62,080 nt of DNA, from contig CAZZDL010000001.1 in the NCBI GenBank assembly GCA_964652335.1, forward strand, positions 1 through 62,080, read 5' to 3'. Shown here piece by piece: positions 46,253 through 51,194 of this stretch. Under the pieces are notes generated by a model. It saw nothing but the letters and a program-made list of their open reading frames with translations, was not told where the DNA came from and ran no database searches. The stretch's first letter is position 1. Each line of letters opens with the position of its first letter. Made by a program: the position numbers and the translations under genes. This DNA is from Candidatus Micrarchaeota archaeon (GTDB lineage Archaea > B1Sed10-29 > WALL01 > WAMD01).

Positions 46253-46722
46253 CTTTATCCCTCTTGTTTTTTGTTTTTGGTTTTTTGTTTTATTATTCGT
46301 TGCGTAAACAGCCTTCTAATCGGCCAAATCCGTTGCGGGCTTGATCAAGCCTGATTCTAGGAAAAAGAAAAACAAAAGTGAGTGTTTGTTAAAAAAATGT
46401 ATTGTAAAAAATATACTTTAACTAAATATCTAACAAAAGTATATTTTTCGTAAAATTCTTTATAAAGTATGTTTACGAAAGGATATAATATAAAATAACG
46501 ATTTTCTCCAAAAAATTTGAAATGGCCAATATGGCGTTTTAACCAATAGAATCTCTTGTATATTGGTTTAAATAGTAGACAAACATTATTTTCTTCGTTT
46601 TTGCCATAAATAGGTCAAATTTTCGCAAAATTATCAAATAATAAGTCAAATTGTCCCGTTTCAAAAAACAGTTATTTTTTCGTGTTTTTTCACCGGGAAA
46701 CCAAGGGGTTAGCAATAAAAAA

Positions 46723-47163
46723 TTAAACCATTCTTATTATTTCCTTTAAGACCGTCTCTGTCCTTGATAAACTCTGGTTTACAGCTGACCTAAGATTTTC
46801 AAGGCTTGGCTCTCCCTCAAAGTTTGTATGGACGAAATAACCACCCCCTTTTTTGTCTATTATCCCTATCTCCCTCATCCTTGATATGTGGTAGTTTACA
46901 AGCCTCTCTTCTATCCCTGTCTCCTTGCTTATTTCAGATGTTTTTGCCGGTTTACCGTTTGAGAAGTTTATCTCTATGATTTTATCAATTATCCTAATCG
47001 CTGTGTCCCGCTTGTCATTTGGGTTTGCAAGCCCTACCGCAAGGGCGAACCACCTTACAAGGCTCTTCCTTGCTAGAGCAATGCTTTTGGGTCTCTTCAT
47101 CTCCCTTATTACAAAAGTTCTCTCTATTATGTCCAGGCCCATATTAATACCGTCTGCTCCCAT
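46723..47163 (-). CDS. Island ORF: winged-helix DNA-binding protein
   Basis: TSEISKETGIEERLVNYHISRMREIGIIDKKGGGYFV. Confidence 0.55.
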   Translation of the reverse strand: MGADGINMGLDIIERTFVIREMKRPKSIALARKSLVRWFALAVGLANPNDKRDTAIRIIDKIIEINFSNGKPAKTSEISKETGIEERLVNYHISRMREIGIIDKKGGGYFVHTNFEGEPSLENLRSAVNQSLSRTETVLKEIIRMV

Positions 47164-47207
47164 AGTTTTATATTTAGGTAGTCATAAAATAAAAAGAGGG
47201 GATCAAA

Positions 47208-47567
47208 ATGAAGATAAGAACAAGCTTTCTACCAATAAGGCTAGTAATAGGGCAGGAAAGGCCAGTCACCCTAACTGTTGAAGTAAAAAATACAGAAGAG
47301 GAACCTAGAAACTTCTCTGTTAATGTCTCTCTCCCTAAGAAGCTTGGATTTGACAGGGCTGGTTTGACAACAGAAGCTAGACAAAGACTAGGAACAATAG
47401 AGCCTGGAGAGTGGGGCTCTGCCAGTTTCAAGATATACTCAAAGTTTGGAATAAAGGAAGGAATATATGACATTGATGTATATGTGAGAGAACACCCAAT
47501 TGGCAGGTTTGACAAGGATTTGGCAGTCGGGAAGACAAGGGCATCTCTTAGGGTTATATCTGGTTGA
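47208..47567 (+). CDS. Island ORF: small all-beta (Ig/CARDB-like?) protein
   Basis: Alternating beta-strand pattern PVTLTVEVKNTEEEPRNFSVNVSLP...GIYDIDVYV. Confidence 0.45.
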   Translation: MKIRTSFLPIRLVIGQERPVTLTVEVKNTEEEPRNFSVNVSLPKKLGFDRAGLTTEARQRLGTIEPGEWGSASFKIYSKFGIKEGIYDIDVYVREHPIGRFDKDLAVGKTRASLRVISG

Positions 47568-47799
47568 AGCCTTTGAGCTTTTGATTTTGCTAGTATTATG
47601 GTAAGATGTATAATAAACTAGTGTAGACACATAAACCCATTATCTTTGACTCCTTTTTCTGGGAAATCTAGGTCTAAGGAGCCAAAGAAGCTGTTATTAG
47701 GACATGAACTAGATTGTGTGTGCTCTGTTTTTTAGTGGATGTTCTGTTTATTCTAGTTCAACCAAAACAATTATAAATCTTGGCTGAATAAAACCAGTC

Positions 47800-48156
47800 A
47801 TGGCAAAGTACGAAACGACAATAAAGATCAAAGCCAGGGAGCGAATCCCTGATCTGTTAACAATACTGGAGGGTTTATTCTATAGAAAACCAGAGCTAGG
47901 AAAGAAAGCATTGGAGCTTGTGTACAAGATTATTGAAAGAAAAAGGATTCCTGCAGAAGAGTGGAAGAAACTGCAAGAAGAATTAGGTGTGTCTCATCAA
48001 GAGTATTATACAATAATTGGAAAGTTGAGGGGAGCAGGGATGATATCAAAGGAAGATGGGGAATGGATCCTATCAAGGCAGTTTGGTAACAGAATGGGAG
48101 AGATGAGAGATATATGGATGAGCTTTGTTAAGAGGTGGGAAAATGCCAAGGTTTAG
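47800..48156 (+). CDS. Island ORF: small wHTH-like protein
   Basis: GVSHQEYYTIIGKLRGAGMISKEDGEWIL. Confidence 0.45.
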   Translation: MAKYETTIKIKARERIPDLLTILEGLFYRKPELGKKALELVYKIIERKRIPAEEWKKLQEELGVSHQEYYTIIGKLRGAGMISKEDGEWILSRQFGNRMGEMRDIWMSFVKRWENAKV

Positions 48157-48613
48157 GTTGTATTCTTCCCTTACTGGGGCTAAGATGATAATAGAAAGGG
48201 ATGGGAAAGAAGAAGTAATAGACATTGAAAGACCTTTCTGGGAAGATGTGTTGTTGGCGAAATGGATAAATGAAAGATATAAGATAGTCAGGTCTGGCCT
48301 CCTGCTGCGATCTGCAAAGATATTTCTAAAGGGCGAGTTAATAGGTAGAATAAAGGAGGTTTTTGGATTCACTACGAGCATATCTGTTTTTTCCAAATCA
48401 GATAAGGTATTTGACATTGTTGAAAGGGATTATCTGTTAAAACAAGAGTTTATAGTAAAGAAAGGCGATCGGGTTGTTGGAGTAATCAGGCCCATCGGCG
48501 TCTACGTGCCATTGCTTTCAAATATTGGAAAGGGGTTTTCAGGTGAATTTTATGGTCTGTCTCCTAGCGAAGAAAAACTGCTTGTCTTGAGCATAATTGC
48601 TCTCGGAGTATAA
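48143..48613 (+). CDS. Island ORF: beta-rich protein (tubby/LURP-one-like fold suspected)
   Basis: AGGTGGGA SD before ATG 48143; overlaps upstream ORF by 14 nt; FIVKKGDRVVGVIRP pattern. Confidence 0.4.
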   Translation: MPRFRLYSSLTGAKMIIERDGKEEVIDIERPFWEDVLLAKWINERYKIVRSGLLLRSAKIFLKGELIGRIKEVFGFTTSISVFSKSDKVFDIVERDYLLKQEFIVKKGDRVVGVIRPIGVYVPLLSNIGKGFSGEFYGLSPSEEKLLVLSIIALGV

Positions 48614-48678
48614 GCTGAGTAGCTAGAAAAAAGTTTTTTGAAAAGGAAAAAAGTTTTTGATAGTGGTTTTTGATTGCT

Positions 48679-48966
48679 TTATATCTTACCTAAACGCCTT
48701 AGAACTGCCTCAAACTCATGGGCAAGCTCTTCCCCTGTATCTGTAAGCCTCACTAGTTTTATTCTTCCCTCCTTTTCAAATATAACAAGGCCTAGCTCTG
48801 CCATTGTATCTAGCAACTTAACCATGTGGGCATAAGTCGTGTCTGTCTCTTTGGCTAGCATCCTAGCGTACCAGGCCTTTTCCTTGTCGGCAAGCAGAAC
48901 CAATGTCCTAACCGGCTTTTCATGCAGGAAAAAGCTTATTGGATCTATGTCTGCCATTTCAATCAC
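48679..48966 (-). CDS. Island ORF: ArsR/PadR-like small wHTH protein
   Basis: ARMLAKETDTTYAHMVKLLDTMAELGLVIFEKEGRIKLVRLTDTGEEL. Confidence 0.65.
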   Translation of the reverse strand: MIEMADIDPISFFLHEKPVRTLVLLADKEKAWYARMLAKETDTTYAHMVKLLDTMAELGLVIFEKEGRIKLVRLTDTGEELAHEFEAVLRRLGKI

Positions 48967-50048: not shown

Positions 50049-50204
50049 CATATAGTTTACGTAAGCTGACGTGTCAGTTGACATGTTAGTTTACGTAAAA
50101 TTTCTTCCCCCTCAAAACCAGCTATTTGATTAATTTTTATGTCAGCTTACGTAAGTTGACATGTTAGTTTACGTAAACTTACGTAAGTTTACGTAAGCTG
50201 ACAC
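50045..50204. repeat. Array of six palindromic TTACGTAA octamers embedded in longer direct and inverted repeats
   Basis: TTACGTAA at 50057, 50091, 50147, 50169, 50179, 50189. 24-nt direct repeat AGTTGACATGTTAGTTTACGTAAA at 50076-50099 and 50154-50177. 17-nt direct repeat AGTTTACGTAAGCTGAC at 50054-50070 and 50186-50202, with an inverted partner GTCAGCTTACGTAA at 50141-50154. Confidence 0.95.
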
Positions 50205-50217
50205 ATCTGTTGAGCCA

Positions 50218-50931
50218 TTATTGCGGTGTTCTGGGACCCCCCTTAGTTCCGGTATTCTGGTCCGGTTGTCTGAATAGATCTGTCAGAAACATCCTTGCCC
50301 TTTCCATGTCTGGCTTAAATGGGAGGTCTATTGTGCTCCCATAGTCTAGAATTTTCTCTAATGCTTCAATTTCTGGATAATCTGCAGGCAAAGAATACAA
50401 AAATAGCCTAATCTTGTCCTTTTCCTCTTTGCTCTTTGACAAAAGGGCTAAATTTAAGAATTCTAAAGGCAAATCTACAGCTATTACTTGCTTATTCCTT
50501 AATACGCGCTCCAACATTGCAATTATAGCCAAATTCATCTCTGGATCAATGCTTGGTAAAAATAATGTTTTTGCCTTGCTCTTGTTATTATTCTTGTTAT
50601 TATACCTCTTCTCTAAATAAACAAGAAAGTGAGTAATGTACAGGTTCCCTGCCCTCCTTGGCTTTGTTTCAAGGAAACGTTTGTTTAGCTCTTTAGCTAG
50701 CTTCCATGCCCGCGTGCCTTTGTTTATCTTGACAATAAGACCTTGCTCAACCAATTCGTTTATTAGTGGTCTTATCTTTTCCCCTGCTTTGTCCGGTCTT
50801 TTGCTCGGAAAAACCCTTCTTCCGATTTCTGTTATAGTTATCGGAATGGGAGATGAGCATGCTTTAAGTATTCTTTCAATTATCGGTTCTCTCCTATACT
50901 CTCTTTTTTCCATCTTTCCATTGTCTCTCAT
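50218..50931 (-). CDS. Island ORF: N-terminal wHTH protein (237 aa) whose last 12 codons contain the 22-nt recombination-like core
   Basis: ITITEIGRRVF...IRPLINELVEQGLIVKINKG; C-terminus QNTGTKGGPRTPQ. Confidence 0.55.
   Translation of the reverse strand: MRDNGKMEKREYRREPIIERILKACSSPIPITITEIGRRVFPSKRPDKAGEKIRPLINELVEQGLIVKINKGTRAWKLAKELNKRFLETKPRRAGNLYITHFLVYLEKRYNNKNNNKSKAKTLFLPSIDPEMNLAIIAMLERVLRNKQVIAVDLPLEFLNLALLSKSKEEKDKIRLFLYSLPADYPEIEALEKILDYGSTIDLPFKPDMERARMFLTDLFRQPDQNTGTKGGPRTPQ
50236..50257 (-). repeat. 22-nt core GAATACCGGAACTAAGGGGGGT, inverted copy (30-nt CCAGAATACCGGAACTAAGGGGGGTCCCAG at 50231-50260)
   Basis: Exact reverse-complement match to 57078-57099 and 57688-57709. Confidence 0.95.
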
Positions 50932-50996
50932 CTTTTGATATAATTAAGCTATAATATAAATATTTAATCCCCAATATCTGGGGTGTTAAACAACAG

Positions 50997-51008
50997 AAAA
51001 AGTGAGAG
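50997..51008 (+). repeat. Sixth copy of AAAAAGTGAGAG, upstream of ORF 50218-50931
   Basis: Exact 12-mer, followed by ATTT. Confidence 0.85.
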
Positions 51009-51120
51009 ATTTGCGCTATGGATTTAAACATGAAAAACCAAAAATAAACTGCAGATGATGAGGATCTTGAGTGCTGATAATGATGAAAGACGGGCGATCT
51101 GATGCAACAAACAGCAAACG

Positions 51121-51131
51121 TTTTTAAATCC
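51121..51131 (+). promoter_or_regulatory. Candidate TATA box (TTTTTAAATCC) for the tRNA-Met gene
   Basis: A/T box about 30 nt upstream of tRNA position 1. Confidence 0.3.
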
Positions 51132-51194
51132 ATAAGTTAAAAATATAAACTCAGCAGCGGGGTAGGGTAGCCAGGAGTGCCCGCCGGGCTCATA

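Follow-up and report, generated by a model that had tools for sequence, protein, structure and literature searches.

The 62,080-nucleotide (nt) stretch analysed here as a whole (the window; contig CAZZDL010000001.1) holds, between the lhr operon and a transfer RNA (tRNA) gene, a 4.9-kilobase (kb) run of seven small open reading frames (ORFs), O1 to O7. Judged by comparison with related genomes, this is a vertically inherited chromosomal core locus of a small DPANN archaeon and, as a phylum-wide locus in which lineage-specific winged-helix (wH) proteins accompany conserved repeats, it is a candidate origin or terminus region of replication. The locus is conserved and syntenic, its repeats are rare genome-wide, and in relatives the strand-composition skew switches at it. 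The source genome (G000) amounts to 0.82 Mb in 51 contigs and is 96.8% complete; one of its proteins has its best named relative in a 'Candidatus Diapherotrites' archaeon.

An earlier reading of the letters by themselves (the sequence-only reading) had described the stretch as an orphan island, in the first place a decayed provirus or plasmid integrated at the tRNA gene. Small ORFs, AT-rich spacers, repeats, the adjoining tRNA gene and a repeated 20-nt core would all suit such an element. None of the ORFs proved to be an orphan: tblastn against the loci of relatives found homologues of every one. O1–O7 occupy the same position beside lhr and tRNA-iMet in the family- and order-level relatives G002–G009 and G011, while O2, O3, O5 and O7 are syntenic also in G020, from another family of the class, and the block is present and syntenic in every relative in which the locus is assembled. 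This conserved synteny, extending across order and phylum, is the outcome that the sequence-only reading had itself named as counting against it, and it refutes the provirus reading. In addition, codon usage is native, and matches in PHROGs and PADLOC were limited to wH domains, with no hallmark of mobile elements or defence. No integrase or recombinase domain was found in O1–O7 with Pfam, NCBIfam or PHROGs, and the whole genome yielded no match to the tyrosine recombinase family PF00589 (Phage_integrase), while 14 of 14 control genomes did; it therefore has neither XerA nor an integrase of that class. As for the 20-nt core, which had been taken for att-like, it is conserved beside O7 in relatives and is inverted with respect to the other two copies; none of the three copies lies inside the tRNA gene, and no direct repeats bracket the block. 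The locus is almost certainly not a mobile element, and we leave the decayed provirus or plasmid next to no chance of being correct. The other possibility raised at the time, a self-contained DNA-binding-protein module, fits, but needs amending: the repeats are conserved cis elements and the locus is part of the vertically inherited core.

At the locus, the GTGAGAG box (AAAAAGTGAGAG) is concentrated as the sequence-only reading had seen, with all copies in the genome (6/6) falling at 49125–51008 on the + strand. Two boxes lie upstream of O6 and three within its linker region, where each is translated as KSER; a further box precedes O7, and in G002 one likewise stands 69 nt from the O7 start (L010:2054). 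Allowing no more than one mismatch, we counted boxes across the phylum and found the array upstream of O5 in 21 of 21 loci examined, in a single orientation. In 14 of these loci 150–200 nt separate the first box from the O5 start, the distance being exactly 154 nt in six. The share of a genome's boxes located at the locus was 7/13 in G005, 5/9 in G007 and 3/4 in G002. Depending on the family, the gene past the array is O6-like or encodes a protein of ~390 amino acids (aa) combining AAA_22 and wH domains; in G015 it is a 111-aa ORF, followed by O7. The ORF-free stretch beyond O5 measures 300–1160 nt in other families. Guanine–cytosine (GC) content falls to 0.21–0.33 per 100 nt at 48900–49200, compared with 0.40 for the genome, which is what the AT-rich tract of a replication origin (oriC) would look like, and AT-rich tracts adjoin O5 also in G013, G015 and G018, the three distant loci that were read through. 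Two further arrangements were seen in distant loci: many TAGTCAA units ~11 nt apart, ~640–1000 nt upstream of O5 and before the AAA_22+wH gene (G013:C11, L053), and a tandem duplication of a 23-nt unit in the ORF-free stretch (G018:C8, L049).

Palindromes form the next part of the module. The concentration claimed for TTACGTAA held for six of the 15 genome copies, at 50057–50196, but the other nine are elsewhere in the genome. TTACGTAA is found around O6 also in G002, G004, G005, G007 and G008. Judged by this recurrence in relatives, the boxes and palindromes are a conserved non-coding module, not the debris of an island. Just two intergenic TTACGTAA-type palindromes remain, at G000:C11:18682-18700 (L021:683-701) and G000:C1:94640-94662 (L020); one is located 184–194 nt upstream of ftsZ and the other between a DUF2178 gene and pcm. 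A TTACGTAA regulon including ftsZ was considered and rejected, the ftsZ site being kept in the sister genus G002 only; it was not found in four further genomes examined from the order.

The third repeat is a G-string element, AATACCGGAACTAAGGGGGG, of which the genome holds three exact copies. Six relatives carry a copy with 2–4 mismatches at the O7 stop or up to ~400 nt past it, on the O7 strand, and in G004 and G007 a second, inverted copy after O6 creates inverted pairs around O7. The element encodes the end of O7 (NTGTKGG...). In G002 and G006 the G-string DNA lies past or across the O7 stop codon (L010, L016), so it is the DNA that is conserved, not the peptide. The euryarchaeal origin recognition box (ORB) has the consensus GTTCCAGTGGAAAC-AAA----GGGGG (Norais 2007, PMC1868953); GGAAC, an A-rich step and a G-run are common to both.

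To take gene orientation out of the signal, GC skew at four-fold sites was computed strand by strand over the genes. So corrected, it changes sign at the locus in G008, G015, G019 and G020, four relatives whose contigs are long (Table 1). Raw skew in the window's own contig was rejected as a signal, as it tracks gene orientation and the corrected value is zero; without skew, G000 is itself uninformative on a replication landmark. Around orc1/cdc6 (20120–21358), the flanking spacers of 59 and 22 nt leave no adjoining non-coding DNA able to hold an origin. Several other candidates were pursued and dropped. A whole-genome scan for a canonical ORB cluster returned scattered matches, the sole pair (contig C26) lying inside a coding gene. 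The AAA_22+wH neighbour could have been a hidden Orc1, but its similarity is confined to the P-loop and it has no PDB match; its homologue in G000 is on contig C36, within a tight gene row. At the skew minimum of G015:C2 (~211 kb), what looked like a large spacer contained short unnamed ORFs and a tRNA gene and lacked a repeat module, and rRNA orientation could not calibrate polarity because the long contigs carry no rRNA genes.

A winged helix in five of the seven ORFs, already suspected from their translations, was confirmed: O6 exceeds the Pfam cut-off, O1 and O5 fall just below it, and O3 and O7 acquire it from AlphaFold2 models. It was also right that no enzyme is recognisable, as Pfam and NCBIfam gave no enzyme-family match for any of the seven. 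O5, whose winged helix-turn-helix (wHTH) matches are weak and slightly below cut-offs, is present in 22 of the 31 phylum genomes examined and in 11 of 11 of good quality; on this sampling it is a core gene of the phylum. O6 matches HTH_24 (28.8 bits, cut-off 21.9), HTH_5 (24.4 bits, cut-off 22) and NCBIfam HTH_metalloreg (41.7 bits). It occurs at full length in 10 of the 12 other genomes of the order, and an alignment of these relatives shows its N-terminus to be short, amphipathic and conserved. The model of O7 (predicted local distance difference test, pLDDT, 87.6; predicted template modelling score, pTM, 0.84) gave structure matches to winged helices with Z scores of 6–7.6, confined to residues 10–118, and a structure search with the whole model found no counterpart of the C-terminal helical domain. 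A word-based search for homologues of O7 returned O7 alone; it took an exhaustive profile search to recover its family, 41 clusters of similar length among 1.84 billion representatives.

O3 is 62–75% identical across the order, and 36 of its 36 clusters are tagged PF27297. Its AlphaFold2 model (pLDDT 88.7) predicts a winged helix continued by a long C-terminal helix. The best PDB structure matches are wH domains of IclR, MarR, AbfR2 and TFE-alpha, all at E > 0.03, and sequence-profile searches of the PDB with O3 and O7 gave nothing significant. O4 is syntenic with O3 in eight loci and has no Pfam sequence match, PF04525 included; its ESM Atlas model (pTM 0.79) resembles a tubby/LURP-one/scramblase-like barrel, LOR/Scramblase clusters superposing at template modelling (TM) scores of 0.75–0.79 (by query, both sides being predicted). 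The folds of O3, O4 and O7 are thus those of predicted models. O2 is probably a beta-sandwich protein: its Pfam matches are faint and Ig-like only, and a PDB search by sequence profile gave no significant match. It is syntenic in nine loci at 33–68% identity, including that of G020. O1 reaches 21.0 bits with both HTH_24 and HTH_5, slightly below their cut-offs, and has homologues of 29–45% identity at the same position in G003, G004, G005 and G009.

Taken together, the locus consists of seven lineage-specific small proteins (five wH, one tubby/LURP-one-like and one probable beta-sandwich) surrounding a conserved repeat module, whose parts are the AT-rich tract by O5, the same-strand GTGAGAG array, TTACGTAA-type palindromes flanking O6, and ORB-like G-strings after O7. 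We propose that the wH proteins bind the repeats, with O5 as the first candidate, since the boxes accompany it across the phylum, followed by O6 and O7. That the proteins act on the repeats is probable, the pairing of a protein with a repeat being drawn from co-occurrence only. The complex of protein and repeat would mark a chromosomal replication landmark, a role to which we give a slightly better than even chance. The landmark would then be a replication origin resembling those of haloarchaea in its GC-skew polarity; we prefer this to a terminus, tentatively, on account of the AT-rich tract, the ORB-like G-strings, the linkage to orc1 and a neighbourhood that is core and strongly syntenic. 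A more specific version, in which the one-directional array and O5 (with O6 and O7) constitute a dedicated landmark system, either a wH-specified origin or a polar fork trap at a terminus, is unlikely.

Several observations weigh against an origin. The full ORB dyad is missing from the G-string element, whose inverted pairs are at least 1.5 kb apart and away from the AT tract. Nor do the GTGAGAG boxes resemble ORBs; all have the same orientation, and the array reaches into the coding sequence of O6. No orc1 gene adjoins the locus, the distance being 27 kb here and 16–40 kb across five genomes. G000 and G021 have no replication-linked skew, the corrected value being zero throughout the window's contig, and the four genomes that do show the switch share ancestry and synteny, so they amount to fewer than four independent tests. 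In bacteria and thermophilic archaea a skew maximum, the kind of extreme found here, goes with the terminus; in Pyrococcus the polarity is as in bacteria (PMC4164010), while haloarchaeal origins are found at GC-disparity peaks, that is, with inverted polarity (Norais 2007, PMC1868953). Finally, genes of the long arm mostly face the locus, and this bias persists through the switch in G015, G019 and G020; being unchanged there, it cannot decide the polarity.

The same stretch could be an ordinary cluster of small transcription factors, with the boxes and palindromes serving as operators through which O5, O6 and O7 regulate themselves and one another, and perhaps a few other promoters, and with a coincidence at the skew switch that is incidental or inherited through conserved macro-synteny. 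Five wH proteins, divergent and convergent gene pairs and long, promoter-like spacers are what such a cluster would contain; the box 66–69 nt upstream of O7 in two genomes and the TTACGTAA palindromes in two more divergent intergenic regions (upstream of ftsZ and pcm) would be operators, the models of O3 and O7 are plain MarR/IclR-like wH domains, and skew is absent in G000 and G021. However, 5–10 unphased boxes on one strand over 300–1100 nt far exceed typical operators, the array remains where an AAA+/wH gene takes the place of the O6-like neighbour, conservation of the ftsZ site does not reach beyond the family, and it is left unexplained why skew should switch here in four genomes. We regard a plain regulator cluster as less likely than not, but as a serious rival.

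The locus could instead mark a replication terminus. Winged-helix-bound, one-way boxes could form a polar fork barrier, a work-alike of RTP/Ter, or O6 could tether terminus and division site in the manner of MatP/matS. Read with the usual polarity, that of bacteria and also of Pyrococcus (PMC4164010), the skew extreme is what a terminus would give, long-arm genes are mostly directed at the locus, the boxes are strictly one-directional, and O6 combines a coiled coil and an amphipathic N-terminus with palindromes that recur upstream of ftsZ. Yet no opposed second set of boxes was found, and the orientation bias of genes has no switch at the locus in G015, G019 and G020. A gene-dense, core and syntenic region with orc1 16–40 kb away is commoner in origin-proximal DNA. 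The genome has no tyrosine recombinase and hence no Xer/dif system, an idea that was discarded for that reason. We consider a terminus improbable. A further possibility is that the ORF-free stretch upstream of O5 encodes a non-coding RNA, or that it serves O6 as a long 5' leader, its AAAAAGUGAGAG motifs binding protein or RNA. The boxes are on the O6 strand and extend into the 5' part of its coding sequence, in a frame that always avoids TGA, and the stretch reaches 1.1 kb even in tiny genomes; but Rfam had no match there at permissive thresholds, the array remains where another gene replaces O6, and one box stands apart, before O7. We consider it very unlikely.

Among known systems, the archaeal oriC (an unwinding element that is AT-rich and flanked by ORB repeats with G-strings, bound by Orc1/Cdc6) is the natural comparison for the favoured origin. 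The locus is alike in its AT-rich tract, its repeats nearly confined to the locus, a GGAAC/G-string element in inverted pairs, the strand-bias switch and orc1 in the wider neighbourhood; it differs in the distance to orc1, in boxes that are non-ORB and one-way, and in the small wH genes inside the module. Compared with thermophilic archaea, its skew polarity is instead haloarchaeal. In Bacillus subtilis, the RTP protein is small, winged-helical and dimeric, and its gene lies beside the Ter sites. RTP/Ter, and MatP/matS of Escherichia coli, are alike in that a small DNA binder (wH in RTP, coiled-coil in MatP) is encoded next to or inside a set of repeated sites and in the position at a skew extreme of terminus polarity, and the short GTCAG...CTGAC-type palindromes of the locus recall matS. 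Unlike RTP/Ter, the locus shows no opposed barrier set, and no relationship in sequence or fold was found, though no search aimed at one was made. No fork trap resembling Tus/Ter or RTP/Ter, and no MatP/matS-like system, is known in archaea.

The wH domains of O1, O3, O5, O6 and O7 are of the general kind found in small archaeal regulators and chromatin proteins (Lrs14/AbfR, Sso10a, MarR/ArsR, the C-terminal wH of Csa3), and structures of AbfR2, Sso10a, MarR and IclR are among the best fold matches of O3 and O7. They differ in that no ORF except O6 scores above a family cut-off, in that O3, O5 and O7 make up lineage-restricted families of their own, and in the extra helical domain of O7. The model of O4 superposes on the LURP-one/tubby/scramblase families (PF04525, PF03803), whose hallmark is a twelve-stranded barrel around a central C-terminal helix, a place that the hydrophobic C-terminal helix of O4 would suit; O4 differs in having no PF04525 sequence match and in being translationally coupled to a wH protein.

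A full-text literature search found no replication origin or terminus for this DPANN lineage. A single conserved locus with DNA binders of its own and unusual repeats at a strand-bias switch offers a concrete, testable candidate. If the candidate is right, the origin or terminus architecture would be unlike the model of ORBs adjacent to Orc1, five protein families currently without a role would be assigned one, and the locus could serve as a numbering anchor for closed genomes of the phylum.

Table 1 Features of the locus in window coordinates, followed by the position of the skew extreme in four relatives
Feature	Position	Strand	Remarks
AT-rich spacer, 470 nt	46253..46722		from the O0-lhr operon start to the O1 end
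Degenerate box AAAAGTGAGTG	46374		single copy inside the 470-nt spacer
O1, 146 aa	46723..47163	-	weak winged-helix protein
O2, 119 aa	47208..47567	+	
O3, 118 aa	47800..48156	+	predicted winged helix + long C-terminal helix; precomputed tag PF27297
O4, 156 aa	48143..48613 (alternative start 48125)	+	14-nt overlap with the O3 stop
O5, 95 aa	48679..48966	-	wHTH
AT-rich tract, then five GTGAGAG boxes	48967..49462	+	boxes at 49125, 49184, 49295, 49367, 49448
O6, 263 aa	49257..50048	+	amphipathic N-terminus (MGxxxWLxKK), K/E/S-rich linker, coiled coil, ArsR-like wHTH
Palindrome array TTACGTAA / GTCAGTTGAC	50054..50207		between convergent O6 and O7 ends
O7, 237 aa	50218..50931	-	predicted N-terminal winged helix + all-helical C-terminal domain
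G-string element AATACCGGAACTAAGGGGGG, ORB-like	50237..50256	-	overlaps the final O7 codons
Sixth GTGAGAG box	50997..51008	+	precedes the O7 start by 66 nt; small RNA-tRNA unit on its other side
C/D box small RNA, candidate	51051..51105	+	directly upstream of the tRNA gene
tRNA-Met(CAT)	51156..51646	+	415-nt intron (51195-51609) carrying a 96-aa ORF at 51316-51606
G-string element, exact copy 2	57079..57098	+	within a neighbouring gene, inverted relative to the O7 copy
G-string element, exact copy 3	57689..57708	+	near the end of a neighbouring gene
G008:C13, cumulative GC maximum	101 kb		locus at 101.7-103.6 kb; skew +0.14, +0.23, +0.16, 0.00, -0.14, -0.19 (standard error 0.02)
G015:C2, cumulative GC maximum	21 kb		locus at 20.8-22.5 kb
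G019:C1, cumulative GC maximum	220 kb		locus at 215.8 kb
G020:C1, cumulative GC maximum	217 kb		locus at 205-208 kb

The intron-bearing tRNA gene next to the locus, another element of the sequence-only reading, is real: default ARAGORN and Rfam overlook the split tRNA-Met(CAT), which ARAGORN finds once long introns are allowed. The ORF inside the intron had no match in Pfam, NCBIfam or PHROGs, and a homologue of 56% identity occupies the same position in G003 (L002:7-294). In G002, G005, G006, G007 and G020 the halves of the tRNA are contiguous, which points to a recent gain of the intron in part of one family. The element at 51051–51105 is probably a C/D box small RNA: alignment to Rfam sR1/sR2 recovers its C, D', C' and D boxes, at 26.9–28.2 bits and so below the gathering cut-offs of 42–45, and its DNA is conserved beside the tRNA in G002, G006 and G012. 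Its D guide, AAGACGGGCGAT, might base-pair with 16S rRNA at the conserved stretch CGCCCGTC.

In layout and composition the stretch largely agrees with its first description. Seven ORFs of 95–263 aa in alternating orientation and spacers of 470, 232, 290, 169 and 224 nt were all found as described; across the genome, intergenic spacers have a median of ~17 nt and a 90th percentile of ~260 nt, as derived with a crude ORF caller. The compositional difference that had been claimed applies to the AT-rich spacers (GC per 100 nt is 0.17–0.39 in 46253–46722) but not to the ORFs, which are native, with codon usage in the 20th–87th percentile of genes shorter than 900 nt; codon usage and GC of O1–O7 are within the genome range, the low-complexity O6 alone being GC-poor. 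Five CTAG words do occur in 47589–47755, but there is no enrichment over the region (23 observed against 30 expected), and of the pair of AAAAATGTATT copies the second is at 49091 as given while the first starts at 46393, not 46387.

Upstream of the locus, O0 (45590–46252), a 220-aa ORF coupled to lhr, had no homologue in the loci of relatives. The slot between O1 and lhr is the sole variable part of the neighbourhood and is filled by unrelated genes in relatives, among them a HAD hydrolase, a methyltransferase-NUDIX-amino-acid-kinase fusion and a translin-like gene. Many assemblies of the phylum end within a few kb of the locus (G002:C66, G003:C60, G004:C30 and G005:C32, with G009:C17, G011:C20, G014:C13 and G026:C1 also ending nearby); such frequent breaks would be consistent with repeats or uneven read depth there, and the locus itself may explain them.

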